A DNA stretch of 64,000 nt from Candidatus Adlerbacteria bacterium (GCA_903851045.1 CAINNF010000018.1:3925-67924); one strand, 5' to 3'. Counted from the first letter of the stretch, positions 3,504-64,000 are shown. Numbers and translations: made by a program. The notes: a model not told the origin generated them from the sequence alone.

Positions 3504-5030
3504 ATGCATACGCAGGAACGTACAACAGAAAGGCCCCCAATCGTGGCGGTCGTCGGACATATCGACCACGGGAAGTCGACGCTTCTTGACTATATCCGTA
3601 AATCAAAGACCGCCGAGGCCGAGGCTGGGGGCATCACCCAACATCTTTCAGCATACGAGGCGCTGCACACGACACCTGCAGGCATCGAGCGTCGTATCAC
3701 CTTCCTCGACACGCCGGGTCACGCAGCATTCGAAGCTATGCGATCGCGCGGTTTGGAAGCTGCGGATGTCGCAATCTTGGTCGTCTCTGCCGAGGACGGT
3801 GTAAAACCACAGACCGTCGAAGCGATCAAGCTCATCAACTCCGCACATATCCCGTTCATCGTCGCACTGACCAAGGTCGACAAGCCCGCCGCCAACGTCG
3901 AGCGCGCGAAAATGTCTCTGCTCGAGCACGGCGTATACCTCGAAGGGCTCGGCGGCGATATCGCCTTTGTCGCCGTGTCGAGCAAGACCGGCGAGGGTAT
4001 CCCCGAGCTGCTCGACCTCATCCTGCTCGCTGCCGAGCTCGAAGGACTTTCTGCCGACTCGGAGATGCCCGGCTCTGGACTCGTTATCGAGGCGCACGTC
4101 GACCAAAAGCGCGGCAACACCGCCACTCTTATCGTCAAAGACGGTAGTATCGAGAGCGGTGAGTTCGTCATCTCTGGCGAAAGCTACGCGCCGGTGCGCA
4201 TCATGGAGAACTATGTCGGGAAGAACATCAAGGTGGCGCTACCGGGAAGCCCGGTGCGCATCGTCGGGTTCTCGACCTTGCCCGAGGTTGGCGCGATGTG
4301 GCATGCGGTGGAGTCCAAGAAAGAGGCCGAGTCCGAGACGACCAACGCTCGTATCGAGCGTCTGACGCAGGAAAAGAAGCGACCGAACGTCTCCGAAAAA
4401 CCGGCGGAGGACACTATCCACATCATACTCCCGCTCGTCATCAAGACCGACTTCTCTGGCACCGGAGACGCGGTGCTGCACGAACTCAAAAAGATACCGG
4501 AGGACCCCCGCATGGAGGTGCGCGTCGTCGGACGCTCGGTCGGACATGTCTCGGAGAACGACGTGCGTCTCGTCGGCGCATCGACCCCCGCTGGCATCAT
4601 CGTCGGTTTCAACACCAAGGTCGACAATGACGCGCGCCAACTGGCGGACCGGCTCGGCGTGACCATCGCCACGTTCGATATCATCTACAAACTCACTGAG
4701 TGGCTCGAGTCAGAGCTTCAAAAACGTCATCCGCGAGAGAACATGGAGGAACGCATCGGCCTCGCGAAGGTACTCAAGGTGTTCAGCAATCAACAGGGTC
4801 GCATCGTGCTCGGAGGACGCGTCGAGGAAGGCACCTTGAGCGATGGGCAGGCAGTGAAGCTTCTGCGACAAGGAGAAGAGGTCGGACGTGGCGAGATCGT
4901 CAGTCTCCAGACCCAAAAGACTTCGGTTAAGAAGATTGAGAACGGCAAGGAGTTCGGTACGATGCTCAAGATGTCGGCCGAACCGGCGCCTGGCGATCAC
5001 ATTGAAGCGTTCGAGGTCGTCTTTAAATAA
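3504..5030 (+). CDS. infB: translation initiation factor IF-2 (short form, G domain at N-terminus)
   Basis: VAVVGHIDHGKSTLLD, DTPGH, LTKVDK motifs; 508 aa; followed by rbfA. Confidence 0.9.
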   Translation: MHTQERTTERPPIVAVVGHIDHGKSTLLDYIRKSKTAEAEAGGITQHLSAYEALHTTPAGIERRITFLDTPGHAAFEAMRSRGLEAADVAILVVSAEDGVKPQTVEAIKLINSAHIPFIVALTKVDKPAANVERAKMSLLEHGVYLEGLGGDIAFVAVSSKTGEGIPELLDLILLAAELEGLSADSEMPGSGLVIEAHVDQKRGNTATLIVKDGSIESGEFVISGESYAPVRIMENYVGKNIKVALPGSPVRIVGFSTLPEVGAMWHAVESKKEAESETTNARIERLTQEKKRPNVSEKPAEDTIHIILPLVIKTDFSGTGDAVLHELKKIPEDPRMEVRVVGRSVGHVSENDVRLVGASTPAGIIVGFNTKVDNDARQLADRLGVTIATFDIIYKLTEWLESELQKRHPRENMEERIGLAKVLKVFSNQQGRIVLGGRVEEGTLSDGQAVKLLRQGEEVGRGEIVSLQTQKTSVKKIENGKEFGTMLKMSAEPAPGDHIEAFEVVFK

Positions 5031-5660: not shown

Positions 5661-5744
5661 TGCCGGGGTGATGGAATGGTAGACATAGGGGACTTAAAAT
5701 CCCCAGACCTAATCGGTCGTGAGGGTTCGAGTCCCTCCCCCGGC
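5661..5744 (+). tRNA. tRNA-Leu (TAA), type II long variable arm
   Basis: Acceptor GCCGGGG/CCCCGGC, anticodon loop CTTAAAA, T-arm GAGGG-TTCGAGT-CCCTC. Confidence 0.85.
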
Positions 5745-6099
5745 ACCTTAAACGAACTGAATGGTTTTGAATGCAAATGCAATTCGAGCGACTTCTTGGA
5801 AAGTAACAGCTTTGCTTTTTCAAAACGATAAATTTCTTTTTCAATATCTTGGTCAAGATAACCATTAAGAAGTCGCTCTAACTTTTTCGACAAAGAAAAA
5901 ATCTTTTCTTCTTTGTCTTTCACACAAGCAATCAAAGACGGGGTGGAGTTTTTGTAGTCATCTAACGCCAAACGATTGAGTTCCTCCGACGGAAATGGTA
6001 AATATAAAAATGAGATTGAGTATAAGGGAGTTGAAAAATGTGTTATAATATTTCTAATAGTTGTATTACTAGAGTAAATCATATATGCCAGATTAAATT

Positions 6100-7587
6100 A
6101 TGAAAAAGGAGGATGAATGGTTAGTTGAGTTTTTTAAACATTTTGAGACGATACTTGCACCAAAGAGGTCAGAACTAAAGGATTGGTCTAAGGCAGCAGA
6201 TTTCCATGTCTTCAGCACGTTCTTAATCAAAGATATTCAAGAAATTCAAGAGTATTTGAAAAATGCCGATGACCAGTATCTTTATTATGTTTGTAGGCAT
6301 ATTTTTAATATTATAGATTGGATCAAACTTATGATTGTTTCTGGTCTTTCAAATTTTGGTATTGCTTTTGAAAACGTTTTTGATAAGCAATTTGGAGATA
6401 AATACATTCTGCAAAATTTGTATGATGCTTGTTTTGAAAAGTGGATTTCTCAAAAGAAAGGGCAATGGAAAATTGGAGAAAATTTTTATAACATTCTCGA
6501 TTGTAAGTTATATTACCGCAACCATTTTGGAGAGTGGTTTGAAGTCGAAAGAAGAACGGCCTTTGACCTTCTACCAGACAAAAAGCTTCTTGAAAACAAT
6601 TATTTAATCGAACAATTGAATAGCGAATGCAAAGAAACTTGGTACGATGCAATAATCAGAAAATGGGAAGATAAAAAATATCAGGGAGTACTACCAGATA
6701 ATTTTTTGAAATTTAATAAGGAAGAAACGAGTCCCGAAGAATATTCTGATTTTACAATTGAGAACATTAAAACATTAATAAAAAATCCGGTATCAATTGC
6801 GGAACTGGAACGCTGGAATAACGGCAAGATTTTGGATATAGAACACATCGTGAAAATAGCTTCTGGTGTATTAGAAATGGTAACAAAAAGGAGAGAAGAT
6901 AATTGTCATACTATATATCTTTTACGAGACTGTCTAGTGTTCTATGAAGTACACAAGACCATTGACCTCTTAAATTCGGAGCAGACTTCCGCTGATCAAA
7001 TATTGATTGGACGAAAATTACTCACACATGAATTAAGAGAATGGGGGTATTATGTAGTAACACTCGAATCTCTTTATATAGCTCATGACCGCTATCCAGA
7101 AAATTTTAGAGATTTCTACAATGAGTATGCAAGACTACTGGATATGTTCGTCTCTTTAAATCCAGGATTCGCAACTATTATATCTAATCTTGCTGAGTAC
7201 ATATCGGAACATATTCAAACAGACACAAATAAAATAGTTGTTTTCGACATAGGATTTCAAGGATCGATAGCACTATTAACAAAGTACATAATAGATCGCC
7301 ATATCAAGTCAAATGCCCCCAACAAAACAATGGAAACAGATGTGAAAATTGGTGTGGGTGCCGAATGGTCTAAGGGTTTGTTTGGAGATAGATATGAGAA
7401 TGACTGTTTTCCATTTCTAAATCGTTTGCAATTAATGGCAAGAAGTGATGAATTATTTCACTATAAACTGGGAAGTCTACATTCAGGTAAACTCCAGATT
7501 GTAATGGGTGATAAAGAATCGCAACATAAAGCTACCGTTGAACTTGTTGTTCTTGTAATGGTGACTCTATTGGCACAGAGTGAGTAA
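6100..7587 (+). CDS. hypothetical protein (island cargo), 495 aa
   Basis: Long clean ORF in the AT-rich island; no motif recognised. Confidence 0.5.
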   Translation: MKKEDEWLVEFFKHFETILAPKRSELKDWSKAADFHVFSTFLIKDIQEIQEYLKNADDQYLYYVCRHIFNIIDWIKLMIVSGLSNFGIAFENVFDKQFGDKYILQNLYDACFEKWISQKKGQWKIGENFYNILDCKLYYRNHFGEWFEVERRTAFDLLPDKKLLENNYLIEQLNSECKETWYDAIIRKWEDKKYQGVLPDNFLKFNKEETSPEEYSDFTIENIKTLIKNPVSIAELERWNNGKILDIEHIVKIASGVLEMVTKRREDNCHTIYLLRDCLVFYEVHKTIDLLNSEQTSADQILIGRKLLTHELREWGYYVVTLESLYIAHDRYPENFRDFYNEYARLLDMFVSLNPGFATIISNLAEYISEHIQTDTNKIVVFDIGFQGSIALLTKYIIDRHIKSNAPNKTMETDVKIGVGAEWSKGLFGDRYENDCFPFLNRLQLMARSDELFHYKLGSLHSGKLQIVMGDKESQHKATVELVVLVMVTLLAQSE

Positions 7588-7791
7588 AAAGGATATTGCT
7601 ACTATATCCAAGTTAATTTTGATGGTTTGGTTTTGACTTTCTTGGTGCATACACACCGATTTTTTTTGCAAACCGCACAAATATTATTCGCTGACATATT
7701 GGTGGGTTTCACCACATCACCATTATTTTTTTTCTGTTCGTCACTCATATTGTTTAATTATTTTAAATAAGGGTAATGCCTAGATAAACGT

Positions 7792-8763
7792 CTATTTTGT
7801 TTTGAAATTATCCAATATAGCGCAACTTTCCCGAATGTATTTCTTTGACCTCTCTAAATTTGCTGGGAGGGTCGAAACCATATGCCCTGATGAATCAGTC
7901 TGTGCGTCAGCGGGTTTTAGACGTCCTTGCGCATCAATAGCGATGCCTGGAAACTCTTTGGCTATTGGCTCAAGTAGATTCACTGAATCTGGTCCCAAAC
8001 CCCCTGCCACTGCAAGACCTAAATATGGAAGTTTACTATGGATTAATCTCAGCAAAGGGAGAAGTTCTCCCGCATCCATACCCTTTCCCTTTCCCATACT
8101 CATGTCTATCAAGGCAAAATCAATTGAATCACCGTACTCACGAAGTCGGTTCACTACTTCCTGAGGATCGCCATCAACAGCTCTTATTGCGAATTTTCCA
8201 AGTTGTAAGATAATGACAATATTTGGATTTCTCTCTTTAAACTTGCTCATTTCATCAGGATCTGGCCAGGTGACATCAAGTTGAATTGCGTGGAGATTTT
8301 TTCCTCCATATTGAACACATAATTCAAGATTTTTAAGGATGTCTGGAGATTCTTTAGCTTCCCATGGTCCGTTTGGGCCATATAAGTCAGCATAATGTAT
8401 AGTATTCAAAACATCTGGGTCATCAGTAAATCCATTTGCCATTTCTTCCGTGGTTGGAAACTCTTTACTTACTTCTTCGCGTACTTTCGGAGGAACCGGT
8501 AAATCAGGATTCAAAACAATAGGATGTGTCATGACCCCAACCATAATCTTCCGATCTGGATTTTTTCTATTTAGTCGAAGCTCATCAGCCATGGCTCGGG
8601 CTTGCTCAGGACTAAATACATCACAAACACCGGAATAACGATCGCGTTCCATGTTATGCAATTGTTCTTCGGCATCGGCATAATTTTTTGCCCTTCCTGA
8701 TTCAACTTTCTCTCGAAGCATCTCTGCTTCTTTTTGTGCTACTCTTTGTGAGTATTTTTCCAT
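7792..8763 (-). CDS. hypothetical protein (island cargo), 323 aa
   Basis: Long clean ORF; contains ALIDMSMGKGKG and LAVAGGLGPD, no confident family. Confidence 0.5.
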   Translation of the reverse strand: MEKYSQRVAQKEAEMLREKVESGRAKNYADAEEQLHNMERDRYSGVCDVFSPEQARAMADELRLNRKNPDRKIMVGVMTHPIVLNPDLPVPPKVREEVSKEFPTTEEMANGFTDDPDVLNTIHYADLYGPNGPWEAKESPDILKNLELCVQYGGKNLHAIQLDVTWPDPDEMSKFKERNPNIVIILQLGKFAIRAVDGDPQEVVNRLREYGDSIDFALIDMSMGKGKGMDAGELLPLLRLIHSKLPYLGLAVAGGLGPDSVNLLEPIAKEFPGIAIDAQGRLKPADAQTDSSGHMVSTLPANLERSKKYIRESCAILDNFKTK

Positions 8764-8811
8764 TTTAAGATTATAACTTTAAGATTATAACATGGTTCCG
8801 AAAGTCATACA

Positions 8812-8918
8812 TGTTGCCCGCCCGCACTCATTCCCCAGACCCCTTTCTGTGGGCGGGAAATGCAGTCTCGGTTTTGCCAAATCCATATCCCCAGAAAATA
8901 GTTTGGCAAAACCGAGTC
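8812..8918 (+). repeat. conserved structured element copy L1 (second copy at 62404..62500)
   Basis: Shared CATTCC-CCAGACCCCTYCTGYGGGCGGGAAATSCAG then a 9-13 bp stem (CTCGGTTTTGCCA/TGGCAAAACCGAG here) around the conserved loop AATCCATNTCCCCAGA..GTTT. Confidence 0.5.
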
Positions 8919-9239
8919 CATCAAATTGAAACTAGAATTCCGTCAGTTTCTCCCTTATGAGAAACCCGACCTCGCTCTCGCCACCACCATACCGAAAAAA
9001 GAAAAAAGAAAGCGCGCCAAATCAAAACAGAATGTGTGGTGGCGAGGCGAGGACGGAACAGCAGGAGAGGAAGAATAATGTCGTACTCGACAGTATTCTG
9101 GAACGGACGCTGGGCCGTGACGGAATTCATCGTGAAGCGTACGATTACATTTCACATTACCACACGCTCTGTGCGTGCGACATCATTACTCATTGATTTT
9201 TAAAACAGGTTCGGATTTGGTAAGATAAACGCACATCGT

Positions 9240-23869: not shown

Positions 23870-24251
23870 AAATTCTACTAGGATTTATACGGCAGAGCCC
23901 GATGAGGTAATCAAAAGGCTCCCAGCCATTGCGATAGCGCCTTTCGGCAACTACCCATACCCGTTTCCAGATATGACCTAGTAGAGTGACTCTGACTGGG
24001 AGTCCTTTGATCTCTACTAGGTTTTGCAACCATATCCTGAGAATTTGACTTCTTAGGGGTTAGGTCGGCTTGTATTCAATTGTTTGTACCAAGGGGTACA
24101 AGAACAATGATAACATTTTGAGTTATCACTTGGCCACCTTAGCTTAGCTTTGGAGGCTTGCGAAGGAGGTTACCAACAGAGATATGCGCCATCTCTGGCC
24201 TCAATTTGAGCTCACTAATCTATGCGAATGTTTTACTCCCACGAGTGAGTA

Positions 24252-27985: not shown

Positions 27986-28127
27986 AGTAATTTAGATTAA
28001 TTTTTACAAGCTACTACTAACTAATACGGGAGAAAGGGGCAATTAGGTGCTCTTCACGTCCCTACAACTGTTAATACGCCCACGGGACAAAAAAACTTTC
28101 ATCCCCAATTCATTAAAAGCTGGCTGG

Positions 28128-28433
28128 CTAATGAATGATATTAAAAGCCATAGATACAACGGTTATGACAAGTAGAGTAATACCCGCCATAAAAGAGTAG
28201 TCTGCAATATCTCGATATCGGGCAACGCGGGAGGCATCGTGACGCATGGAAATATAGGAATAAATGATGCTTATTGAAAGAAGAACTGAGGAAACTGCGG
28301 CAACCTCGTCTAAAATTGTTGAATTTGCAACACCGCTTACCCGGAGCCCGGTAATGATTATCAGACAAACCCCAATAAGGTTTGCGGCCGATTGCAGTAT
28401 GTGTGACGTGGCTTCTTTTTTGTATTCGCTCAT
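28128..28433 (-). CDS. small polytopic membrane protein
   Basis: ORF with three hydrophobic segments. Confidence 0.35.
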   Translation of the reverse strand: MSEYKKEATSHILQSAANLIGVCLIIITGLRVSGVANSTILDEVAAVSSVLLSISIIYSYISMRHDASRVARYRDIADYSFMAGITLLVITVVSMAFNIIH

Positions 28434-28760
28434 ATTTTTATTTGTTAATACTGCTTGTAACTATCAGTTTTAGCAAAAGAGGCCCCTATTGGAGGTCTCT
28501 TTTGCAAAAGTTCATAGTGTTTTTTGTACCAATTGTTTTTGAGTAGAGAGTCGACGAACGCATGTGGGCCGTAAAGAGTATTGCTATCCAATCAAGCGAG
28601 TAAGTACCTAATTACAAACCGGCTTGGGGGTGCGACACTCGCGGGCAATATTGTAGTAACAATAAGTTCGCTCGAGTCCAACAGTTGCAAGTGGTTGATT
28701 ACTAGTAATGCCTCGACCTGCACTTACTACTACGCGAGCAAACAAAAATTCCTTTCAAAG

Positions 28761-29447
28761 CTACTGCTCCCAGTTATGCACTGAGCGTGCAATAAATACA
28801 CTCGTCGAAGATTCAAGCAAACCAAACATTCGTATTGTGGAACTTGCGACGGGGACAAACGAGCCTGTGGATGTTGCGACCCGAACCTTCCAAGTACGGC
28901 CGTTAAAGTCAGTAACAGAAAAATTGTTGTTATCCTGGATTGAAGTGATGACTCCAGCCAACCTTCCCACAACCGGACGGCTATATGCTTCTCCCGAATC
29001 CAGCACCAACGAATCGTAGAGCGGTATGGTATTCAAAAATTCATGAGTAATTTTCCCAACACCAAAGAAGTTGAGGATTGAGCCGAAAATAATACTCAGA
29101 ATCACACAACCCAAAACCATCACTCGTATCGGGTACCTGTATCCCTTCTTTGTGTGTTTAAGTCCGATTCGTGCAATTACTATGAATAACACGAGCGCAA
29201 TAATCCAAAGAAACGGTACCATCGCGAGAAAATCAATCACATCATGGGGCATCGCCCATAGACCGTGTTTATGGAAATCAACAAAAAGGTACAGCATCAC
29301 TCCAACGGAAAAACCACCAAGGAGTAGGGAGAGTGCGGCACACAGCCAGTAAAACACTCGCCATACGAGAAAGCGCCAACGCGGAATCGAAATAATCTGA
29401 TCCTTCTCAATCCGTCCCATTATTTTGTTTGATAGTTCTTCGCTCAT
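28761..29447 (-). CDS. putative anti-sigma factor (membrane protein co-transcribed after ECF sigma)
   Basis: Start overlaps sigma stop (ATGA); N-terminal cytoplasmic segment then multiple TM helices. Confidence 0.45.
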   Translation of the reverse strand: MSEELSNKIMGRIEKDQIISIPRWRFLVWRVFYWLCAALSLLLGGFSVGVMLYLFVDFHKHGLWAMPHDVIDFLAMVPFLWIIALVLFIVIARIGLKHTKKGYRYPIRVMVLGCVILSIIFGSILNFFGVGKITHEFLNTIPLYDSLVLDSGEAYSRPVVGRLAGVITSIQDNNNFSVTDFNGRTWKVRVATSTGSFVPVASSTIRMFGLLESSTSVFIARSVHNWEQ

Positions 29448-30028
29448 ATGGTTGTCATCCCTTTGGCTTCCAGCGCAGTTTTTAATTCTTTTTTCCCTCG
29501 GTTGATAAGTGTTGCAACGGTACCCTCCGGCATTTTTAAAATGTCGCTAATCTCAGTATAGCTTTTCTCTTCAAGAAAACGGAGAACAAAAACCTCCTTG
29601 TATTTTGGATCAAGCTCAGAAAGAAGACTCTGTACAAGACGGGCATCGTCTCGTTTATGAGTAAGTTCAACAAAATCAGTCTCATCTGCTAACTGCTCAA
29701 AAAACACGTCCGTGTCCTCTGCGCTTAAGTTTAGTACGCGGGGGCGGACTTTTTTCTTTCTAAGAAACGAAACGGTCTCATTATGAGCTATGCGATAGAG
29801 CCATGATGAAAACTTAAGGCCGGAATCATAGTCATTGAGATTAATAAATACCTTGATGAAAATCTCTTGTAGTACGTCGTCTACGTCACCGTCATCAATA
29901 CCTCCTAAACGTTTACAGTAGCGGCGGATAGGGGCCTCGTACCTATGAACAATCTCTGAAAAAGCCTGCTTATCGGTAAGAGCGGCAGCGACTAATTCTT
30001 GGTCTGTTTTTGTTGATTCTACATTCAT
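29444..30028 (-). CDS. ECF-family RNA polymerase sigma-70 factor
   Basis: Region 2 (VLQEIFIKVF...FSSWLYRIAHNETVSFLRKKK) and region 4 HTH (YTEISDILKMPEGTVATLINRGKKELK). Confidence 0.85.
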   Translation of the reverse strand: MNVESTKTDQELVAAALTDKQAFSEIVHRYEAPIRRYCKRLGGIDDGDVDDVLQEIFIKVFINLNDYDSGLKFSSWLYRIAHNETVSFLRKKKVRPRVLNLSAEDTDVFFEQLADETDFVELTHKRDDARLVQSLLSELDPKYKEVFVLRFLEEKSYTEISDILKMPEGTVATLINRGKKELKTALEAKGMTTI

Positions 30029-30198
30029 GTAACTAAAAGTCGATATCGAGGAGCCCTGGGAGCATAACTGGCTCTGGATACTTCTTGTCGCAGAAAGCTG
30101 ACTCCTCTTTATACTAGCAATCTTGACCTTTTCTTACCAACTTCGAGGGCATTCGGACGCTCTGGACTCCTTAAGGGGTCTGCGTCATCTCTTGAGGT

Positions 30199-31530
30199 AT
30201 GGAACAAATAGCAACAAGGCCCGGTTTGGGAGACACAAGGAGGCAACCCATAGCCCAGCCAGTACGAGTTAGATATTGCCTCTATGCAAGAAAGAGTACC
30301 GAGTCAGAAGAAAGACAGGTCCTTTCTATCGATTCGCAGATCAAGGAGATGCTCCAGTTGGCCGACCGTGAGGGGCTGGAGATAGTCGAATTGAAACGAG
30401 AGAGTCACTCGGCAAAAGAGACTGGGCAGCGACCTGTTTTTAACGAAATAGTAGATGAGCTAAAAGCTGGCAAATATAACGGCATACTCACGTGGGCACC
30501 AGATCGTATTAGCCGCAATGCTGGAGATCTTGGAAAGATAGTAGACCTGATGGATGCGGGGACACTTCAGGAAATACGTACTCATAGTCAAAGTTTTAGG
30601 AATAACCCCAACGAAAAGTTCCTTCTGATGATTCTCGGGTCGCAAGCGAAGCTCGAAAACGATAACCGAGGCGTAAATGTTAAGCGTGGGCTACGGACAC
30701 GCTGCGAAATGGGCCTTAGGCCGGGGGTTGCCCCAGTGGGATATTCAAATGAGAAACACGCCGACCGTAAATGTCACGCGGTTATCGACGAACTGCGCGC
30801 ACCCGTAATCAAGCAAATGTTTGAGAAAGTGGCGAACGAGCAATGGAGTGGCAGGAAATTGTACCAATGGCTGAAATTCGACCTCAACTTCAAAAGTAGG
30901 GCAAACAAAAACATGACGTTGAGTAGTGTCTACGTGGTACTTCAAAACCCCTTCTACTATGGCGTATTCGAGTATCCAGAAAAGAGCGGCAACTGGTACG
31001 ACGGCAAACATCAACCTCTTATCACCAAGGAGCTGTTCGATAAAGCGCAGGAGCAACTCAAACGAGACCGCATCCTGCGCTCCGATATTAAGGAGTTTGC
31101 CTTTATTAAGCTCATGTTATGTGGGGCTTGCGGCTCGGGCATTACAGCGGAGGAGAAGTTTAAGAAACTAAAGGACGGCACCTCAAACCGCTACGTGTAC
31201 TACGGCTGCACCCGTGCGAGGGACAAGGACTGCAAGAACGGTTACGTACGGGAGGAAGAGTTGATTACTCAGACGGTCAAAATTATGGACCACATCGACC
31301 TCAACAACATCAGCATGCGGGAAAAATTCGAGGCAGAGGTAGACCGTATGCGAAAGTTTCAACGCGCATTCACTGCCACGACAACGGATGCAAAACCGCA
31401 AAAAGAAATCGACCTGCGCGGCTACGCTAAGTATTTACTCAAGGAAGGGAGTGTGACGGAGAAGCGCGAGTTGCTGCTCTGTATTAAGAGCAAGTTGGTA
31501 CTCGACAAGGGAACTCTGAGATTGGAGTAG
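30199..31530 (+). CDS. large serine recombinase (resolvase/invertase N-domain + recombinase + zinc-ribbon)
   Basis: VRYCLYARKSTESEERQVLSIDSQ (catalytic Ser region), ...WAPDRISRN; C-terminal CGACGS...YYGCTRAR zinc ribbon. Confidence 0.85.
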   Translation: MEQIATRPGLGDTRRQPIAQPVRVRYCLYARKSTESEERQVLSIDSQIKEMLQLADREGLEIVELKRESHSAKETGQRPVFNEIVDELKAGKYNGILTWAPDRISRNAGDLGKIVDLMDAGTLQEIRTHSQSFRNNPNEKFLLMILGSQAKLENDNRGVNVKRGLRTRCEMGLRPGVAPVGYSNEKHADRKCHAVIDELRAPVIKQMFEKVANEQWSGRKLYQWLKFDLNFKSRANKNMTLSSVYVVLQNPFYYGVFEYPEKSGNWYDGKHQPLITKELFDKAQEQLKRDRILRSDIKEFAFIKLMLCGACGSGITAEEKFKKLKDGTSNRYVYYGCTRARDKDCKNGYVREEELITQTVKIMDHIDLNNISMREKFEAEVDRMRKFQRAFTATTTDAKPQKEIDLRGYAKYLLKEGSVTEKRELLLCIKSKLVLDKGTLRLE

Positions 31531-31534
31531 CGAT

Positions 31535-32776
31535 CTACTTTCCCTTAAGTCGATCCTTATACTTCTTCCTCTGTAACCCAAGGTGGTACTTATGAAAATC
31601 ATCACTATCGCACTCGTTCTCAATTGTCAGAGCTTGCATACACCGGCCTCGACGATATGGACCGAATAGTTTTGCAAATTCTCCCTGAAACCACTGGAGT
31701 GTGTCGTGCTCGCTACCCGCATTCGTTTCTTTGCTGAAATCAGGATCCCCCGGCAATCTTCCGTATTCGTCCATAGCCCCGCCAGTCCCGTCATTATTGC
31801 CCCACATTATCTCGCCGCCCCAATGAATCGCACGAGGGTCAGGCATGAGCAGGTATCCATGCCCGTAGATATTCCAGTCTGATTTAGAGACATGGCGCTC
31901 AGGATACAACCATTCTTCCCTTGCTGCAGCTAAGTAACGGGTCGCACGACTCTTTATGATGAAATTTATTTCACGAACCTCCTGCTCGGTAAGGTGGCGC
32001 AGAACTTGGACATCGGTGAACTTAAATATTGCATTGCGAAAAGGAAACGAATTGGGGCGCTCTTGCTTCGCAGATTGATATGGATTCCTTACCCATGAAA
32101 GGTTTGTGAGTATCAGTACTTTATCGATCGAGAGTGGAAAAATGGTGTGTGTCCCCTGGAGCCATATCTCGGGATCGTTTGAGTCGCGACACTGATGTGA
32201 TCGGGGTCCGCATTCTCGATTATATACAGTAACGGGGTGATCAGAGACAATAAACTTCGTCTCCGACTGAGAAGCGTCCGCAATGAGCCAGACACATTCC
32301 GTCCAAATGGCGGAATGAATATTACGCAATCGAATCATGGCGCGTAGAATCGCGTCCTTATCCTTGCTTCCGATTTTCTCACTTAAAAACGAGAGGCCTT
32401 TGGGAGTCCTGAGTTTCTGGGTACTCATATAGCGCAAGATGTCCTCAAGGGAAGTTCCCCAATCCTTTAGTGGGTAGCCAAATTTTTCAAAGTACTCGAC
32501 AGCGGGGCGACCTTTCGTGTCTATCTCGCCGAAAAAGTGTTTCTCAATGTCTTTCACTTCAATGCCTCGTATTTTTGTCGTATATAAATCTTCTTCGACG
32601 AAACACTTTTTGCTGCCTTGCCGTTTTACTGCCTTCCTAATATGACGTACACCGCGCGGATCAGTGAAAGTTTCTGGATTCAAATCCAACTGAAACAGTT
32701 CATGTTCGCCAGGTAGCATGAACTTCTTTTGGTACCACTGCGGTACGTAGTGGTGATTTCGGTATTCATCAGGCAT
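31535..32776 (-). CDS. DUF4238-family protein
   Basis: N-terminal HHYVPQWYQKKF matches the DUF4238 signature HY(I/V)PQFYL..F as I recall it. Confidence 0.45.
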   Translation of the reverse strand: MPDEYRNHHYVPQWYQKKFMLPGEHELFQLDLNPETFTDPRGVRHIRKAVKRQGSKKCFVEEDLYTTKIRGIEVKDIEKHFFGEIDTKGRPAVEYFEKFGYPLKDWGTSLEDILRYMSTQKLRTPKGLSFLSEKIGSKDKDAILRAMIRLRNIHSAIWTECVWLIADASQSETKFIVSDHPVTVYNRECGPRSHQCRDSNDPEIWLQGTHTIFPLSIDKVLILTNLSWVRNPYQSAKQERPNSFPFRNAIFKFTDVQVLRHLTEQEVREINFIIKSRATRYLAAAREEWLYPERHVSKSDWNIYGHGYLLMPDPRAIHWGGEIMWGNNDGTGGAMDEYGRLPGDPDFSKETNAGSEHDTLQWFQGEFAKLFGPYRRGRCMQALTIENECDSDDFHKYHLGLQRKKYKDRLKGK

Positions 32777-32907
32777 TCCTAAACATTACTCCTGCCAGCA
32801 AAAAAGTTCGAATCCGCTTAGGGTTCGAACTTTTTTGTCTTTACTCATTTTTTATAGCCCCTTGTTTTATAGGGCACGCGGTCGCGAGACACGCATGCCC
32901 GTTCCTG

Positions 32908-32992
32908 CGGAGGCGGAGAGATTCGAACTCTCGAACCCTTGCGGATTGCCGCCTTTCCAAGGCGGTGCACTCGACCACTATGCGACGCCTCC
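32908..32992 (-). tRNA. tRNA-Ser (GGA), type II
   Basis: Reverse complement GGAGGCG..., anticodon stem CCGCC/GGCGG, loop TTGGAAA, long variable arm, T-arm GAGAG-TTCGAAT-CTCTC, acceptor CGCCTCC. Confidence 0.8.
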
Positions 32993-33118
32993 GTTATGTC
33001 GAACCAGCACGAGCGCACTTACCTATACTGCGCTAAAAATCGTTTTTTCTCAAGTCAAAAGGAGATAAGTCGTTTCGACTTACGTTGCATATACGCGCAA
33101 AGCGCACAGTCAGTCTGC

Positions 33119-41121: not shown

Positions 41122-41170
41122 CCCCGGCCCAGCCGGGGATTCTCTTTTTTGTACAAGGGTTACACTTGGA
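41122..41170 (+). repeat. array junction J1: GC hairpin (CCCCGGCCCAGCCGGGG) + T-tract + TGTACAAGGGTTACACTTGGA
   Basis: Member of the 7-copy junction repeat family (terminator then palindromic operator). Confidence 0.6.
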
Positions 41171-41735: not shown

Positions 41736-41797
41736 CCCGCCCAGCGACCCCAGAGGTCCTGGGCGGGATTTCTTTTTGTACAAGGGTTACTTTTGGA
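41736..41797 (+). repeat. array junction J2: hairpin CCCGCCCAG...CTGGGCGGG + ATTTCTTTTTG + TGTACAAGGGTTACTTTTGGA
   Basis: Junction repeat family. Confidence 0.6.
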
Positions 41798-41887
41798 AAG
41801 ATACAGCGGTGGTGGTTGACAAAAGTAAGTGTCCCATATACACTTACTTTGATTAAGTTCCTTAACTGCATATGGGGGAGACATCCC

Positions 41888-42236: not shown

Positions 42237-42298
42237 CCCGCCAAAGACCCCAAAGGTCCCCGGCGGGATTTCTTTTTGTACAAGAGTTACCCTTATCC
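42237..42298 (+). repeat. array junction J3: hairpin + ATTTCTTTTTG + TGTACAAGAGTTACCCTTATCC
   Basis: Junction repeat family (degenerate palindrome). Confidence 0.55.
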
Positions 42299-42383
42299 AG
42301 TCACGTCTTATTCTAGTTTTTTGCAAAAAACTAGAATATATCAACACTGTTTTAGTGGCCAAAAAGTCTTTCGGCGAGATTTT

Positions 42384-43416: not shown

Positions 43417-43494
43417 CCCCGCCGGAGAAGACCTCACAGGTCCCCGGCGGGATTTCTTTTTGTACAAGGTTTATCCTTGGATACTTACACCACA
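43417..43494 (+). repeat. array junction J6: CCCCGCCGGAGAAGACCTCACAGGTCCCCGGCGGG + ATTTCTTTTTG + TGTACAAGGTTTATCCTTGGATACTTACACCAC
   Basis: Canonical junction: strong terminator hairpin immediately followed by the palindrome. Confidence 0.65.
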
Positions 43495-44805: not shown

Positions 44806-44898
44806 CCCCGCCGGAGAGACCCAAAAGGTCCCCGGCGGGATTTCTTTTTGCACAAGGTTTATCCTTGAATAAGGGTTACCCTTGGATACTTACACCAC
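44806..44898 (+). repeat. array junction J7: CCCCGCCGGAGAGACCCAAAAGGTCCCCGGCGGG + T-tract + TGCACAAGGTTTATCCTTGAATAAGGGTTACCCTTGGATACTTACACCAC
   Basis: Carries both palindrome variants (ACAAGGTTTATCCTTG and CAAGGGTTACCCTTG). Confidence 0.65.
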
Positions 44899-52947: not shown

Positions 52948-52956
52948 CCGTCGTTA

Positions 52957-53061
52957 CAGAACACAAGAAAAACACTTTGCAAATGGTCTGGAAGCCTACA
53001 GCGTCGCTCTGGACGCTGAGGCGGCCCGAGGACCTTTGCAAAGTGTTTTTCTTGTGTTCTG
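52957..53061. repeat. palindromic mini-element copy 1: 27-bp inverted arms (CAGAACACAAGAAAAACACTTTGCAAA/…) around conserved 51-nt core ATGGTCTGGAAGCCTACAGCGTCGCTCTGGACGCTGAGGCGGCCCGAGGACC
   Basis: Perfect long inverted repeat; core shared with 53704..53799; lies between convergent rpsA and pth. Confidence 0.65.
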
Positions 53062-53065
53062 TTCT

Positions 53066-53662
53066 CTATTGTTTCGAATGAATGACCATCGTCGCATGGT
53101 CGCGGCTTTCGTTCACTAACAGTTCGAGCGCTTCGGCGACCAGCTTCTTTACCTTTTTTAGTTTTTCTCCTTCGGTAGGTTTGAACGTACCGAGCACGAA
53201 GTCGACGACCTTCTCCGACTCTGGCTTTTTCGTCTTACCTGACGGTGTCGTGGGCGAGATGCCGATGCGGATACGAACGAAATCCTTCGTCTTGAGCGCC
53301 TTTTGAATAGAGTCGACGCCTCGGTGACCGCCCGCGGAGCTGCCGAACGACAACTTCACCCGCCCAAGAGGCATATCGAGCTCATCGTGGAGCACGACGA
53401 GATTCTCGGCGGCTTTTTTCGACTTCACGAGCGCGGTCAGCGCCTTGCCGGAATTGTTCATATAGGTGTCCGGTAGTACGAGTGCCACCTTTTTACCGAA
53501 CAGTTCTGCTTTCGCGGTCAGTGCATGCAGCTTCGCATCCTCTTTCCACTTTGCTACCCCTTCTTTCTCCGCAATCTCCAATAAGAAGTCGCGTCCGATG
53601 TTATGACGTGTGCCGTCATACTCGCCACCTGGGTTCCCAAGCCCTACGATCGTCCATTGCAT
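53066..53662 (-). CDS. pth: peptidyl-tRNA hydrolase
   Basis: MQWTIVGLGNPGGEYDGTRHNIGRDF...HDELD...GGHRGV motifs. Confidence 0.9.
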   Translation of the reverse strand: MQWTIVGLGNPGGEYDGTRHNIGRDFLLEIAEKEGVAKWKEDAKLHALTAKAELFGKKVALVLPDTYMNNSGKALTALVKSKKAAENLVVLHDELDMPLGRVKLSFGSSAGGHRGVDSIQKALKTKDFVRIRIGISPTTPSGKTKKPESEKVVDFVLGTFKPTEGEKLKKVKKLVAEALELLVNESRDHATMVIHSKQ

Positions 53663-53703
53663 GTCTTACAGCGTAGCATAAGAAGAAAAAATACAAAGTC
53701 TTT

Positions 53704-53799
53704 ACAAAAAAAATGAAAAACATTTTACAAATGGTCTGGAAGCCTACAGTGTCGCTCTGGACGCTGAGGCGGCCCGAGGACCTTTGTAAAATATTTTTC
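53704..53799. repeat. palindromic mini-element copy 2: arms ACAAAAAAAATGAAAAACATTTTACAAA/TTTGTAAAATATTTTTCATTTTTTTGT around the same core (one C>T)
   Basis: Arms differ from copy 1 but remain self-complementary (compensatory changes). Confidence 0.65.
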
Positions 53800-53865
53800 A
53801 TTTTTTTGTATATATATTTTTTGATAAAACTTGCGTTGTTCGAAAAGAAGAATACAATAACTTGC

Positions 53866-60703: not shown

Positions 60704-60790
60704 GGAGAGGTGGCTGAGTGGTCGAAGGCACCGCACTCGAAATGCGGCGTAGGGGTAACCTTACCGAGAGTTCGAATCTCTCCCTCTCCG
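60704..60790 (+). tRNA. tRNA-Ser (CGA), type II, CCA encoded (to 60793)
   Basis: Acceptor GGAGAGG/CCTCTCC, anticodon loop CTCGAAA, long variable arm, T-arm GAGAG-TTCGAAT-CTCTC. Confidence 0.8.
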
Positions 60791-60947
60791 CCAAAATTGA
60801 AAATCGGAATTGGAAGCCGAAATGGGGCCGCGCCGCAGGCGCGACACAAACGCATTACCGCCAGAAATTCGCGAATCCAAAAGGTCTTTCCACGCTCCGC
60901 GTAGCTCAAAAAGTACGGTTCGGGAGTTGGAGGATCAAAAATAAATC

Positions 60948-62342
60948 ATGAACGAAGGAAATTTGAACTATTTTGGACCTCGGATTTCAACTCCTAAACC
61001 GAGAACTTTTGAATTGACTGGTAAAAAAGAGCGAGAAGGCCTGACGCCAGAAGAAGAAGGCGAGCTACGAGGTTTATTTGCCCACCCCGATAATCCAGAA
61101 GCTGCGAGCCTATTGCAAAAAGAATACCTCGCATCGCAAGGAATAGGGCAAATGAGTGATGAGGAACGAGAACGCCTGCGCATTATACGAATGGAAAAAT
61201 ATCGTCGAGAACGTAGAGTAGAACCATCTGAAAATGCACCATCTAAATTAGATGAGAAAAAGCAGGCCGAGGCGAGTGCCGCAGAACTGCACATGCTTTA
61301 TATACAAGCAAAAATTGCCGCACTTAAAGGACACTGGGACGGTCTGCCAAAAGAGGTTATAGATCGAATGATTCAAGCTATTCCTGACGATGTAACCGTT
61401 TATACAAAAGAGACCTTACACTCAATGCCAAAGGATGAGCCGTCCGAAATTGAACTATATTTTTTAAGCAAAATTCAAAATCTTCCCGATTTTAGAAAAG
61501 ATGATAAACCGGAAGGGGCATTGCGTATAATGGAGAGCATTCGTTGTTTACGAGATAAAATAAGAACCAAAAAATTTTTAGCTGGACTTACCGAGGCACT
61601 TAATAATATTGGTTCATCCGAAAAATCCGAAATAGAGATGTGCGATGCTGGTACGGGTGCAATACCAATTTTAGCGATTTATGCGGCACTTTCTTCTGAA
61701 AAGGTTCGATGTACTGCGATTGAGCTCAACCCAAATTCTGCTGCGATTGCAGAAAAAGTTGTAGAAGCTTTCGGATTGCAAGACCGCATTAAAATCTTAC
61801 GAACTGATGCAATAAAATTCGAGCCAGAAAAACAGATTGATTTATTAATTTCCGAAACCATGCATTCTGGCCTAACCGCGGAACCTATGGTGCAGATTCT
61901 CTCAAATCTAAATAAATACTTAAAAGAGGACGGGGTCGCATTACCGAGTGCAGTAAGAATAAAAGCCGCGCTTGTGCCTCTCAATGATTGGACAAGCCCA
62001 AAAGGGTTTGTGAAAATTTATGGCAATTTACATCATGTCGTGTCACCGAACTGGGAAGAGGTCGTACATTATGAACCTGGAGACAATTTGGAAGAAATTG
62101 CATTTAACGTACCGGTCGAAGGTGCACCGAAGGGAAGTTATTTTGTCCTTGTGACAAGTGAGGTGGATATTGGTTCACAACGGATTAACTCCTACCAGTC
62201 GCTTATTACAATGCCTCAGTTTTTGCGAGACGCTAAATCTGATCCAATGATCTTTGATATTAAAGATAGCGATAGTCGTCATTCTATCAGTGTTACATAT
62301 AAGCCAGGAGAAATGTTGGATGGGGTAAGCAGACTTGATTAG
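60948..62342 (+). CDS. class I SAM-dependent methyltransferase-domain protein (464 aa) in a lower-GC island
   Basis: Motif I MCDAGTGAIPILAIYAA; post-I acidic ELNPNS; Glu/Lys-rich N-terminal extension. Confidence 0.5.
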   Translation: MNEGNLNYFGPRISTPKPRTFELTGKKEREGLTPEEEGELRGLFAHPDNPEAASLLQKEYLASQGIGQMSDEERERLRIIRMEKYRRERRVEPSENAPSKLDEKKQAEASAAELHMLYIQAKIAALKGHWDGLPKEVIDRMIQAIPDDVTVYTKETLHSMPKDEPSEIELYFLSKIQNLPDFRKDDKPEGALRIMESIRCLRDKIRTKKFLAGLTEALNNIGSSEKSEIEMCDAGTGAIPILAIYAALSSEKVRCTAIELNPNSAAIAEKVVEAFGLQDRIKILRTDAIKFEPEKQIDLLISETMHSGLTAEPMVQILSNLNKYLKEDGVALPSAVRIKAALVPLNDWTSPKGFVKIYGNLHHVVSPNWEEVVHYEPGDNLEEIAFNVPVEGAPKGSYFVLVTSEVDIGSQRINSYQSLITMPQFLRDAKSDPMIFDIKDSDSRHSISVTYKPGEMLDGVSRLD

Positions 62343-62403
62343 AATTTTGTGAGATCTGCTAGTTTGGTGCCGACGAATTTCCGACAATCCCCAGTCCGAA
62401 ACT

Positions 62404-62500
62404 CGTCCGCATTCCTCCCCAGACCCCTCCTGCGGGCGGGAAATCAGCCGAGGCAGGGCGAATCCATTCCCCCAGACACATTGTTTCGCCCTGCCGAGTC
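62404..62500 (+). repeat. conserved structured element copy L2 (pair of 8812..8918)
   Basis: CATTCCTCCCCAGACCCCTCCTGCGGGCGGGAAATCAG + stem GGCAGGGCG/CGCCCTGCC around loop AATCCATTCCCCCAGACACATTGTTT. Confidence 0.5.
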
Positions 62501-62632
62501 CGCTTTAATCGTTTGGATTTTGCTCGAAATAGTTTCAAACTTTGTTTAACAAACACTGCAGAATGTGCTTATAAACAGTTCGGCGTTATGCGACCATGTA
62601 CGTCAAACGGTGCGTGGTATGCTTGTAGGTAT

Positions 62633-63268
62633 ATGGACACCAAGAGTACCGGCGTCAGCATGGTGCTTATCGCAGTTGCTGCGACGGTTTTGGGTGTTGC
62701 GGTATATCCATCCCTACCTGCGGAAGTCGCGGCACACTGGGGAACGATGGGAGAGGTGGATGGGTACCTTCCAAAGGCGTGGGGCATATTCATGTTCCCA
62801 TACATCATGCTGTTCACGTTCTTGGTGTGGTGGGTCATTCCCTACGTGGAGCCGATGAAAAAGAATCTTGAGGCTTTCCGCGAGGCTTACAATGGCTTCT
62901 GGCTCGTGATAGCGGTCTTTCTTTTTTACGTGTATGTACTGGTGATTGGCACGAACGTCGGGTGGGAGTTCAATTTCGTGCAAGCGCTCGCCCCTGGCCT
63001 CGCCCTCTTTCTTGCGGGAGCAGGTGTCTTGCTCGCAGAAAGTAAGCGGAACTACTTCGTTGGCATCCGTACCCCTTGGACCCTCTCGAGCGACAAGGTG
63101 TGGAAACGCACGCACTTGCTCGGGTCGAAGCTGTTCTATCTGTGCGCGGTGTGGACCTTTCTGGGCGTCGTGTTCCCTCAATACTTGATGTGGCTTTTGT
63201 TCGTACCGCTGACGATCACGGTACTGATCACGACCGGCTATTCGTATATTGAATTCAGACGTCAATAG
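62633..63268 (+). CDS. SdpI/YhfL-family membrane protein
   Basis: Start at MDTKSTGVSM; multiple TM helices and GIRTPWTLSSDKVWKRTH signature. Confidence 0.55.
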   Translation: MDTKSTGVSMVLIAVAATVLGVAVYPSLPAEVAAHWGTMGEVDGYLPKAWGIFMFPYIMLFTFLVWWVIPYVEPMKKNLEAFREAYNGFWLVIAVFLFYVYVLVIGTNVGWEFNFVQALAPGLALFLAGAGVLLAESKRNYFVGIRTPWTLSSDKVWKRTHLLGSKLFYLCAVWTFLGVVFPQYLMWLLFVPLTITVLITTGYSYIEFRRQ

Positions 63269-63387: not shown

Positions 63388-64000
63388 ATGAGGGTTCTAG
63401 CGATCGAAACCAGCTGCGACGAGACTGGCGTCTCTATACTTGAGGGCACCCAAACGGGCGAGGCGATGCGTTTTACGGTGCTCGGCACCGCACTCCTCTC
63501 TCAAGCAGCCCTCCACGCGCCCTACGGCGGTGTATACCCCAATCTCGCCAAGCGCGAACATGAGAAGAATCTCCCGGTCATTTTGGAGCAAGCAACAAGA
63601 GCGGCTGGAGAAGCTTGCACGGGGTCCATCGAAACCACCTCAGAAAAAAAGTCCTCGGGTCTCCCGTCCAGGCCGGATGCCGGCCAGGCGGGCCAGACTA
63701 TTTTTTCTGAGGTGGTTTCGACGTTCCAGCGATTATCGATCGACGCGATAGCGGTCACGAGCGGCCCAGGACTCGAACCGGCACTTTGGACCGGGATCAC
63801 CTTCGCGAAGCGACTCGCTAAAGAGACCGGACTGCCGCTGATGGGTGTCAATCATATGGAAGGACATCTTATCTCCTCCCTCGCCCGTCAAAGCCTCGGC
63901 AACGACGGGACTCATTCTCACATTCTTGAGAATGGTGGAGTGACAAGATGTGAGATTCGTGATGTGCGGTTTCCCGTCCTTGGACTTCTGATCTCGGGTG
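63388..64000 (+). CDS. tsaD: tRNA N6-adenosine threonylcarbamoyltransferase TsaD (Kae1/Gcp), 3'-truncated at window edge
   Basis: MRVLAIETSCDETGVSI..., AVTSGPGLEPALWTGITFAKRLA...GVNHMEGH; manual translation, no stop inside the window. Confidence 0.85.
   Translation, partial: MRVLAIETSCDETGVSILEGTQTGEAMRFTVLGTALLSQAALHAPYGGVYPNLAKREHEKNLPVILEQATRAAGEACTGSIETTSEKKSSGLPSRPDAGQAGQTIFSEVVSTFQRLSIDAIAVTSGPGLEPALWTGITFAKRLAKETGLPLMGVNHMEGHLISSLARQSLGNDGTHSHILENGGVTRCEIRDVRFPVLGLLISG

Follow-up and report, generated by a model that had tools for sequence, protein, structure and literature searches.

Islands integrated by large serine recombinases (LSRs) include the staphylococcal cassette chromosomes (SCCs; SCCmec with CcrAB), the recombinase-less pseudo-SCC relics, and the serine-integrase prophages. 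The elements described here, called L/J elements after the two repeat modules that they carry, resemble SCCs and serine-integrase islands in encoding an LSR with Resolvase, Recombinase, and Zn-ribbon domains, in being inserted at the 3' end of a conserved gene, in carrying variable cargo, and in having a short core shared by both junctions, with inferred attP-like and attB-like half-sites that differ by 5 bp. They differ from SCC-type islands in that the target is a tRNA-Ser or tRNA-Leu gene, the recombinase gene is bracketed by a 113- to 135-nt inverted repeat (J), the cargo lies between the arms of another inverted repeat of 190 to 420 bp with two conserved hairpins (L), an internal, inverted attP-like junction is kept, and the whole is tiny (4 to 6 kb) and found nearly always in Patescibacteria. 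The two islands at the locus studied here resemble the recombinase-less pseudo-SCC relics. L/J elements are also like the tycheposons, which are said to be small, cargo-carrying elements at tRNA genes of bacteria with reduced genomes and to bring niche-adaptive cargo; unlike L/J elements, tycheposons reportedly rely mostly on tyrosine recombinases and are not known to have L and J inverted-repeat modules.

As in integrons, a conserved platform holds highly variable, often promoterless-looking cargo, the cassette borders form hairpins that are conserved in structure over stem sequence, and a promoter-bearing segment lies at one border. In contrast to integrons, however, L/J elements use a serine rather than a tyrosine recombinase (IntI), have one cargo bay rather than an array, and have borders that form an inverted pair. 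We rejected an integron because the only recombinase of L/J elements is a serine recombinase and because, compared with attC sites, the L hairpins are conserved in the loops and variable in the stems, with no R or L boxes or extrahelical bases evident. A further comparison is with invertible segments that have an adjacent serine invertase, such as Mu G/Gin, P1 C/Cin, and PinQ (PMC12529663). These are similar in placing a serine recombinase gene beside a 1.5- to 3-kb segment flanked by inverted repeats, and the recombinase segment of L/J elements likewise occurs in both orientations across genomes (L099, L168, and L234). L/J elements differ in having a large, integrase-type recombinase instead of a small invertase, repeats that are 5 to 10 times longer, whole unrelated genes as cargo, and flipping without an obvious read-out.

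The window analyzed here is the whole 64-kb stretch of the “Candidatus Adlerbacteria” contig; its two copies of L are called L1 and L2, and loci used for comparison have three-digit labels (L013 and so on). A covariance model of L, built from 74 distinct copies and run without filters over the whole window, gave exactly two matches, both in the sense (+) orientation, namely, L2 at 62395-62508 (132 bits; E = 2e-32) and L1 at 8810-8926 (94 bits; E = 1e-22), and found no minus-strand partner in the 64 kb. L2 is genuine, and a chance match is excluded. Both islands begin at a class II tRNA gene, have low GC (0.32 to 0.42 over 6 to 9 kb and 0.42 over 61 to 62 kb, versus 0.55 to 0.59 in the flanks), and have an L copy at the far end (Table 1). 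The tRNA calls, GC, and model matches therefore agree with a preliminary description of both loci as a plus-strand tRNA, low-GC cargo, and L, in the same orientation. That description placed L2 at 62404-62500; the element does lie there, but the conserved unit is larger (∼62368-62560) and can be aligned end to end with the 189-nt inverted repeat of L013 and with 66 further outer ends. The partial tRNA direct repeats that it proposed to look for near L1 and L2 were not found at L, and the outer ends of the modules mimic the tRNA 3' end instead.

Several other identities for L were rejected. Rfam 15 gave no match to L in the window at the gathering threshold, with only noise (E > 2) over 62300-62650. 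A phage or plasmid origin was rejected on 0 matches in IMG/VR, PLSDB, and INPHARED. Open reading frames (ORFs) span L in two frames, yet copy lengths differ by non-multiples of 3, and a protein-coding reading of the L-J region is also countered by a hypervariable 4-nt block in loop 2 and by compensatory stem changes; we attribute the long ORFs to GC-rich sequence without stop codons. The string TCCCCAGA, common to L and the tRNA-Leu anticodon arm, is a 10-nt coincidence and is missing from tRNA-Ser.

Table 1. Features of the two L-bounded islands and of a third tRNA-linked island in the 64-kb window
Feature	Coordinates	Strand	Description or basis
tRNA-Leu(TAA)	5662-5747	+	ARAGORN
Recombinase C-terminal pseudogene remnant	5825-5989	-	L023/L088 clade, 55 codons
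L1 cargo	6100-8763		495-aa ORF (+) and 323-aa ORF (-); GC 0.32-0.42
Complete L1 end module	8813-∼9232	+	Hairpin core 8817-8921; long outer part ending ...GGTTCGGATTTGGTAAGATAAACGCACA
Sigma/anti-sigma pair	28761-30028	-	Third island
Intact large serine recombinase	30199-31530	+	Third island
DUF4238 gene	31535-32776	-	Third island
tRNA-Ser(GGA)	32907-32992	-	Third island
tRNA-Ser(CGA)	60704-60793	+	ARAGORN; Rfam tRNA; 3' end ...CTCCGCCA
J-like module	60794-60907	+	Direct comparison with J of L117 and L013, plus junction position
Recombinase 3'-end remnant	60908-60924	-	Last codons of large serine recombinase gene (AAAAAGTACGGTTCG...)
L2 cargo gene	60948-62342	+	464-aa class I SAM methyltransferase; best Pfam match PRMT5-like; GC 0.42
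Complete L2 end module	62368-62560	+	Inner arm, two hairpins, outer arm ending ...TTTCAAACTTTGTTTAACAAACACTGCA
L2 hairpin 1	62402-62440	+	Stem CUCGUCCGCA / UGCGGGCGGG, loop UUCCUCCCCAGACCCCUCC; fold and covariation
L2 hairpin 2	62446-62503	+	Stem GGCAGGGCGAA / UUCGCCCUGCC, loop UCCAUUCCCCCAGACACAUUGU; fold and covariation
Degenerate tRNA 3'-end mimic (outer ∼30 bp)	62530-62560	+	TTTCAAAC...CACTGCA; inferred recombinase half-site at right island junction

We searched one genome per GTDB species with the motif CCCCAGA-N-GGGAAAT-N-CCCCAGA and recovered at least 120 loci. About 90 of the matches listed are true copies, with a core of 59 to 64 nt, and nearly all of these are in metagenome-assembled genomes of Patescibacteria, across many classes. 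The scanned tiles were fixed 8-kb blocks, and adjacent tiles join several apparently solo L copies into pairs. Eighteen tiles contain inverted L pairs 1.4 to 3.1 kb apart, always with the 5' side of L facing inward, toward the cargo. The repeat unit is ∼190 bp in the L2 subfamily and 330 to 420 bp in the L1 subfamily, the two copies within one element are 99 to 100% identical, and many contigs are broken within L.

In intact elements, L stands at each end of the cargo, in inverted orientation. L013 is ordered as tRNA-Ser(TGA), J, recombinase, inverted J, inverted L, cargo, L, and host flank; its J is a conserved noncoding block of 113 to 120 nt whose inverted copy is 100% identical, and its 460-aa recombinase, encoded on the opposite strand, has the Pfam domains PF00239, PF07508, and PF13408 (Resolvase, Recombinase, and Zn_ribbon_recom). 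The full order, from tRNA-Ser to the distal L, recurs at no fewer than 12 loci in genomes (nhmmer and tblastn maps) and at no fewer than 12 in metagenomes. In a sister clade (L088 and L023), the recombinase is 42 to 48% identical, the J-like repeat is a distinct one, the L core is the same, and the target is tRNA-Leu. In ∼94% of modules, L, J, and the recombinase gene run in the same direction, the recombinase segment between the J repeats being flipped in ∼3 of 50 (the three genomes named above). No cargo was seen in both orientations among the elements compared.

A scan of JGI metagenomes, selected on the J motif and not on L, gave 120 loci. The sequence directly before J was a tRNA-Ser gene in 70 cases (spanning five anticodons), a tRNA-Asp gene in 1, an L module in 35, and something else in 23; ∼20 of these last have the same tRNA-mimicking end with no detectable L core, and mimic-type ends total 58. 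J begins within 0 to 5 nt of the tRNA-Ser 3' end in 70 of the 71 tRNA-adjacent cases, as it does in 7 of 9 loci examined separately. The earlier suggestion that L bounds a family of tRNA-targeting insertions is supported both by this J-selected set and by the recurrence of the full order. We found no description of the element in the literature searched or in Rfam, and the family, a widespread one of serine-recombinase cargo islands in Patescibacteria, is apparently undescribed. The kind of element, a serine-recombinase integrative island, is known; what is unusual is its double inverted-repeat design, together with a structured border module.

Inverted repeats of ∼190 bp around passenger genes, and contigs that break in L as expected of a multicopy repeat, might instead mark L pairs as the terminal inverted repeats of a nonautonomous transposon (a miniature inverted-repeat transposable element or a mobile insertion cassette) that is mobilized in trans by an unidentified transposase and has the recombinase as a mere neighbor. 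We consider this extremely improbable, given that no target-site duplication is seen at 18 L pairs or in 44 flanks, no transposase occurs among 30 cargo proteins, one side of the L pair adjoins J and the recombinase wherever flank is available, and the outer end imitates the recombinase's tRNA target.

The reading that we favor, with a probability of about 0.7, is that L2 is the core of the distal end module of an LSR-integrated cargo island, that the window copies are relics, and that the att and hairpin roles are as inferred below. An LSR would have integrated the island at the 3' end of tRNA-Ser(CGA), with L2 as the conserved core of its distal end module and L1 as the equivalent end module of the sister clade that targets tRNA-Leu. 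The intact element runs from the tRNA 3' end through J, the LSR gene, inverted J, inverted L, a small helix-turn-helix (HTH) gene with the cargo, and L to the host flank, an architecture that is observed repeatedly in Patescibacteria. The outermost ∼30 bp of the module would act as an attP-type half-site against the attB-type tRNA-Ser 3' end, with a 5-bp offset, and the hairpins, as DNA structures, would mark the borders of the cargo bay. The narrower claim that L is the border module of an LSR island family, and that its window copies are relics, we hold with high confidence.

Decay of both window islands is evident beside their tRNA genes. At tRNA-Ser(CGA), whose 3' end we infer to be the left (attL-side) junction, nhmmer with the J of L013 stayed below threshold in the window, and the J-like call thus rests on direct comparison and junction position. 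The adjoining recombinase remnant, only ∼17 nt long, matches positions 1212-1230 of L013 (encoding ...DRTVFF), a short match of ∼15 of 19 nt; the recombinase gene body, inner L, and inner J are absent. Nothing indicates that the cargo gene product, a methyltransferase, acts on DNA. At the other island, tRNA-Leu(TAA) is the putative left junction, with a layout like that of L088, where tRNA-Leu(CAG) is followed by a J-like repeat (J2) and then the recombinase. Its remnant is 69% identical over 55 aa to residues 348 to 402 of the L023 recombinase (tblastn; E = 4e-22), against E = 2e-4 (blastp) for the L013 recombinase. Neither cargo ORF has a Pfam match. The L1 module, which ends just ahead of host gene 9240 and whose outer end was compared with those of L088 and L023, is 85% identical over 429 nt to that of L020 and is also conserved in L016, L027, and L054.

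Only remnants remain after each tRNA, and we therefore conclude that both islands have lost the recombinase body and the inner L. Judged from sequence, they are immobilized relics that have kept their cargo, members of the recombinase-island family but inactive. J and a recombinase remnant without the recombinase also occur in L018, L183, L140, and L187. The preliminary description had stated that neither island contains an integrase, which holds for an intact gene but not for remnants, since these adjoin both tRNAs; its suggestion that the islands may be decayed fits the same remnants. It had also raised mobilization in trans by the recombinase at 30199. That protein has the domain architecture of the J-type recombinase, but it is only 35% identical to that of L013 and belongs to a separate island without L or J, making such mobilization unlikely. 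Related genomes with L at the same positions and no island, or islands with no L, would have refuted the association of L with these islands; instead, L020, syntenic with the L1 flank, carries at this position a full L pair around different cargo.

Some local details of these relics are recorded here as observations. All of the recombinase-less loci (L183, L140, L187, L018, and the window at 60908-60924) keep J along with 15 to 27 nt from the end of the recombinase gene (AAAAAGTACGGTTCGAGCTTCAATAAT); the endpoint of the deletion recurs across different genomes, and we have no explanation for it. Between the 323-aa cargo gene and L1, an exact 14-nt tandem duplication (TTTAAGATTATAAC twice, 8764-8791) sets two TATAAT boxes directly upstream of that gene. 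Within the L1 end module, an 11-nt inverted repeat (GAATTCCGTCA, 8937-8947 and 9118-9128) bounds a 170-nt stretch, and the corresponding stretch on the L(+) side of L020 (7908-8000) is reversed, so that it looks like a small invertible piece.

The remainder of the window has other features. The third tRNA-linked island (28100-33000; GC, 0.43 to 0.50) has no L, no J, and no obvious boundary repeats. A LOOT RNA (Rfam RF03000) lies at 23933-24066 (-), a full-length match whose 72.5 bits exceed the gathering score of 46.4. Intergenic repeats of a second family, AGACCCCAAAGGTCCCCGGCGGGATTTCTTTTTGTACAAGGTTTATCCTTG, occur at 41745-41799, 42245-42299, 43429-43483, and 44817-44871, with shorter copies at 41145, 42380, and 42776; each consists of a hairpin, a T run, and a palindromic TACAAGG..CCTTGTA, with 4 to 9 copies within 4 kb. 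Weak L-model matches in this region (41 to 45 kb) are spurious. Positions 52950-53074 and 53698-53822 form a 125-nt direct repeat (83% identical), each copy having a near-perfect inverted repeat of 25 to 28 nt with a 51-nt spacer. Finally, a tsaD-like gene (63390-64000) follows tRNA-Val(GAC), and its 435-aa counterpart in L121 (10133-11440) seems, judged by eye only, to carry an insertion relative to typical TsaD.

Sequences before J all end in ...CCGCCA, or ...GCACCA in the Leu clade. Real tRNA-Ser genes have the T-loop motif TTCGAAT 23 nt from the end, whereas 66 L-module ends, and likewise the coreless mimic ends, have TTCGAAC 27 to 28 nt from the end, a strictly bimodal difference. The family consensus of the module outer end is TTCGAAC-N-CACCGCCA, and the 21 nt between the motifs vary among subfamilies; a pair of conserved motifs whose spacing does not change points to recognition by a protein. 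In serine integrases, the ZD motif is shifted by 5 bp between attP and attB half-sites (PMC3783163), and the spacing of 28 nt in the mimic versus 23 nt in the tRNA matches this rule, with the bases read by the protein and the crossover undetermined. We lean, without much margin for certainty, toward the outer ∼30 bp of the L module being an attP-type half-site, an element-side recombinase arm that mimics the attB-type tRNA-Ser end. The inferred arms would be TTCGAAC-N21-CCA (attP type) and TTCGAAT-N16-CCA (attB type, tRNA-Ser), with tRNA/J as the attL-side and L/flank as the attR-side junction and the crossover in or beside CCGCC. Crossover does not take place at the hairpins, which lie ∼55 nt (L2) or ∼310 nt (L1) inside the junction.

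These assignments have limits. The exact att site and crossover dinucleotide are undetermined because the first bases of J show only weak dyad symmetry with the mimic arm. A conserved B' half-site in the host flanks was rejected, as flanks beyond the distal L gave only a weak signal of ∼5 nt; at least 11 flanks open with a terminator hairpin, which would be expected after a tRNA gene. The junction pattern of an empty site had 0 matches in JGI metagenomes, same-species contigs all carry the island, and contigs of close relatives stop at the tRNA cluster or are nonsyntenic. No excised circle was found, and its junction would be indistinguishable from the internal L/J junction. With neither an empty site nor a circle, recombinase-driven integration is inferred and not observed. 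Moreover, an inverted copy of the L-outer/J junction persists inside the intact element, and a simple attP × attB event fails to explain it.

Two unusual arrangements were noted at such junctions. A “mini-L” at 4330-4400 (-) of L018, found also in L178, has a single hairpin (GGCGGGCGGAA / TTCCGCCCGCC, loop UUCCCCCCACACCCCCCUU), then the 28-nt-spaced mimic end, and then J. L018 also shows a full L outer end fused to J at position 28 of the latter, where J has a second, internal CCGCCAAAAAT; this suggests CCGCCAAAA as a putative recombination core. In L041 and L074 (JBAZYS010000001.1, ∼13.5 to 18.2 kb), the inverted repeat does not stop at the L outer end but takes in a palindromic terminator, after which comes another inverted mimic end (TGGCGGTGTCT), a hint that adjacent modules may be arranged in arrays.

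L1 and L2 each fold as two tandem hairpins with loops of 19 to 22 nt that carry UCCCCAGA, and the folds are more stable than those of shuffled sequences (z = -3.3 and -6.1 for the two window copies). The hairpin 2 stem is wholly different in L1 and L2, with complementarity kept. The C-rich loops (UUCCUCCCCAGACCCCUCC and AAUCC..CCCCAGA) are fixed, and the stems vary by compensatory substitution; among the 74 copies, double substitutions occur at 8 of 17 modeled pairs, in up to 27 sequences per pair, and five stem pairs of hairpin 2 have 6 to 27 each. The hairpin 1 stem is wholly replaced in L163 (AAUGGAAAA/UUUUCCAUU) and L249 (AGCGGAGGA/UCCUCCGCU), with the loop (UUCCUCCCCARACCCCUCC) unchanged. 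Because stems are replaced while the loop is kept, we infer that hairpin formation is under selection and that the loops are read by sequence. A G-quadruplex or i-motif was rejected, as the C tracts of the stem are lost in AT-stem variants.

Covarying stems with invariant loops are found in many functional RNAs, and L might be transcribed, either with J as a ∼330-nt 5' leader of the recombinase mRNA or as a small RNA or 3' untranslated region from cargo read-out, with loops that would bind protein or G-rich (Shine-Dalgarno-like) sequences. The shared direction of L, J, and the recombinase gene in most modules, the stability of the folds, and CCUCC within the loops are compatible with this. Nevertheless, Watson-Crick pairs make up ∼98% of the total and G.U pairs only ∼0.9% (17, compared with 14 A.C), which is unusual for a one-strand RNA and weakly favors a DNA-level structure on both strands. 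Furthermore, no recombinase lies downstream of the distal L copy, the recombinase is flipped away from L in the three genomes with inverted segments, Rfam has no match, and promoter and terminator prediction gave no consistent result. We therefore regard a structured RNA as unlikely. That the hairpins have a role at the DNA level, extruded or single stranded and displaying the conserved C-rich loops, is itself a tentative proposal about which we have more doubt than conviction.

The position of the hairpins bears on what such a role might be. Their distance to the cargo border is constant (∼50 nt), that to the junction is variable (55 to 310 nt), and the recombinase modules of L206 and L222 adjoin mimic ends without a detectable L core. 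Such coreless ends indicate that the hairpins are not required for placement of the recombinase module itself, and all three observations together assign the hairpins to the cargo bay and not to the crossover. Coevolution of the hairpin 2 arm with the recombinase clade was rejected: L099 has a TTTTG stem and an 84%-identical J-type recombinase, and a stem variant that does not track the clade argues against coevolving duplex half-sites. Our preferred guess is that the hairpins serve either as an accessory site or for cassette exchange.

Beside the inner end of one L lie a conserved promoter-like stretch and a 65- to 68-aa Cro/C1-type HTH gene (Pfam HTH_3) that reads into the cargo. The HTH-bearing L is the recombinase-proximal copy in 13 of 15 cases, and in 13/15 the HTH and recombinase genes diverge around L-J. 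This divergence, a 5' side of L that faces the cargo in both copies so that outward transcripts meet L in sense, and a T-rich tract after hairpin 2 in the main subfamily would suit transcription insulators or terminators, or operators of the HTH regulator, that keep cargo transcription from reaching the recombinase and host genes. At 19 to 22 nt, however, the loops far exceed the 3 to 8 nt of intrinsic terminators, a terminator scan calls neither hairpin, and L1 and L2 have no T tract. For an operator, the conserved centers are mirror symmetric rather than dyad symmetric and the palindromic arms are unconserved, the opposite of what an HTH dimer needs, and one L core is shared by three HTH/promoter types. 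Both variants seem very unlikely.

The cargo between L modules spans 1.4 to 4 kb, apart from the HTH gene. It includes AccI-type and HincII-type restriction-modification systems, MFS and SSF transporters, a Vut_1/QueF-like set, an aminotransferase, an LD-carboxypeptidase, HNH and DHH proteins, small methyltransferases, and many unknowns; a defense-island reading was rejected, as restriction-modification occurs in only 2 of ∼18 cargo sets. Elements built on the same recombinase, J, L, and HTH platform differ completely in cargo. Where the L, promoter (K), and HTH segments are 83 to 96% identical, the unrelated cargo is sharply delimited, by the end of the HTH gene and by the inner end of the distal L.

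Near-identical platforms with unrelated cargo would also be expected if the L modules were mainly homology arms: competent CPR cells would take up DNA, and RecA would swap cargo between matching modules, the hairpins being incidental or helping to process single-stranded DNA. The competence of these organisms, on which this explanation leans, is background knowledge. The near identity of the two L copies within an element agrees with it, as does the far greater conservation of L across CPR classes than of the recombinase (42 to 48% between clades). Homology arms do not need hairpins, yet compensatory change maintains the stems, and the tRNA-mimicking outer end with its fixed 28-nt spacing is left unexplained. 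We find this distinctly unlikely as the main function of L.

A broader version of the favored reading is that these elements are a phylum-wide gene-capture platform in Patescibacteria, with integron-like logic built on an LSR and with L as a new class of recombination or establishment signal; we consider this speculative and rather more likely wrong than right. A tRNA-anchored recombinase/HTH module would carry a single cargo bay bordered by DNA hairpins with invariant C-rich loops, one per orientation, giving each single strand a functional copy. In that case, the hairpins would be cassette-exchange sites or would serve in priming or recognition of single-stranded DNA acquired by competence.

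Gene exchange in the ultrasmall, mostly uncultured CPR bacteria is poorly understood, and engineering tools for them are scarce. The family described here ties a defined recombinase to a specific tRNA target, to predicted att arms, and to a cargo bay, and its near-identical platforms in several CPR classes hold different genes, including restriction-modification systems, transporters, and enzymes. For noncoding DNA, the L hairpin module is unusually well conserved, exceeding even the recombinase, under a constraint whose nature has yet to be explained. Should the recombinase prove active, the family would provide a natural integration system for Patescibacteria and a marker of recent horizontal transfer among them.
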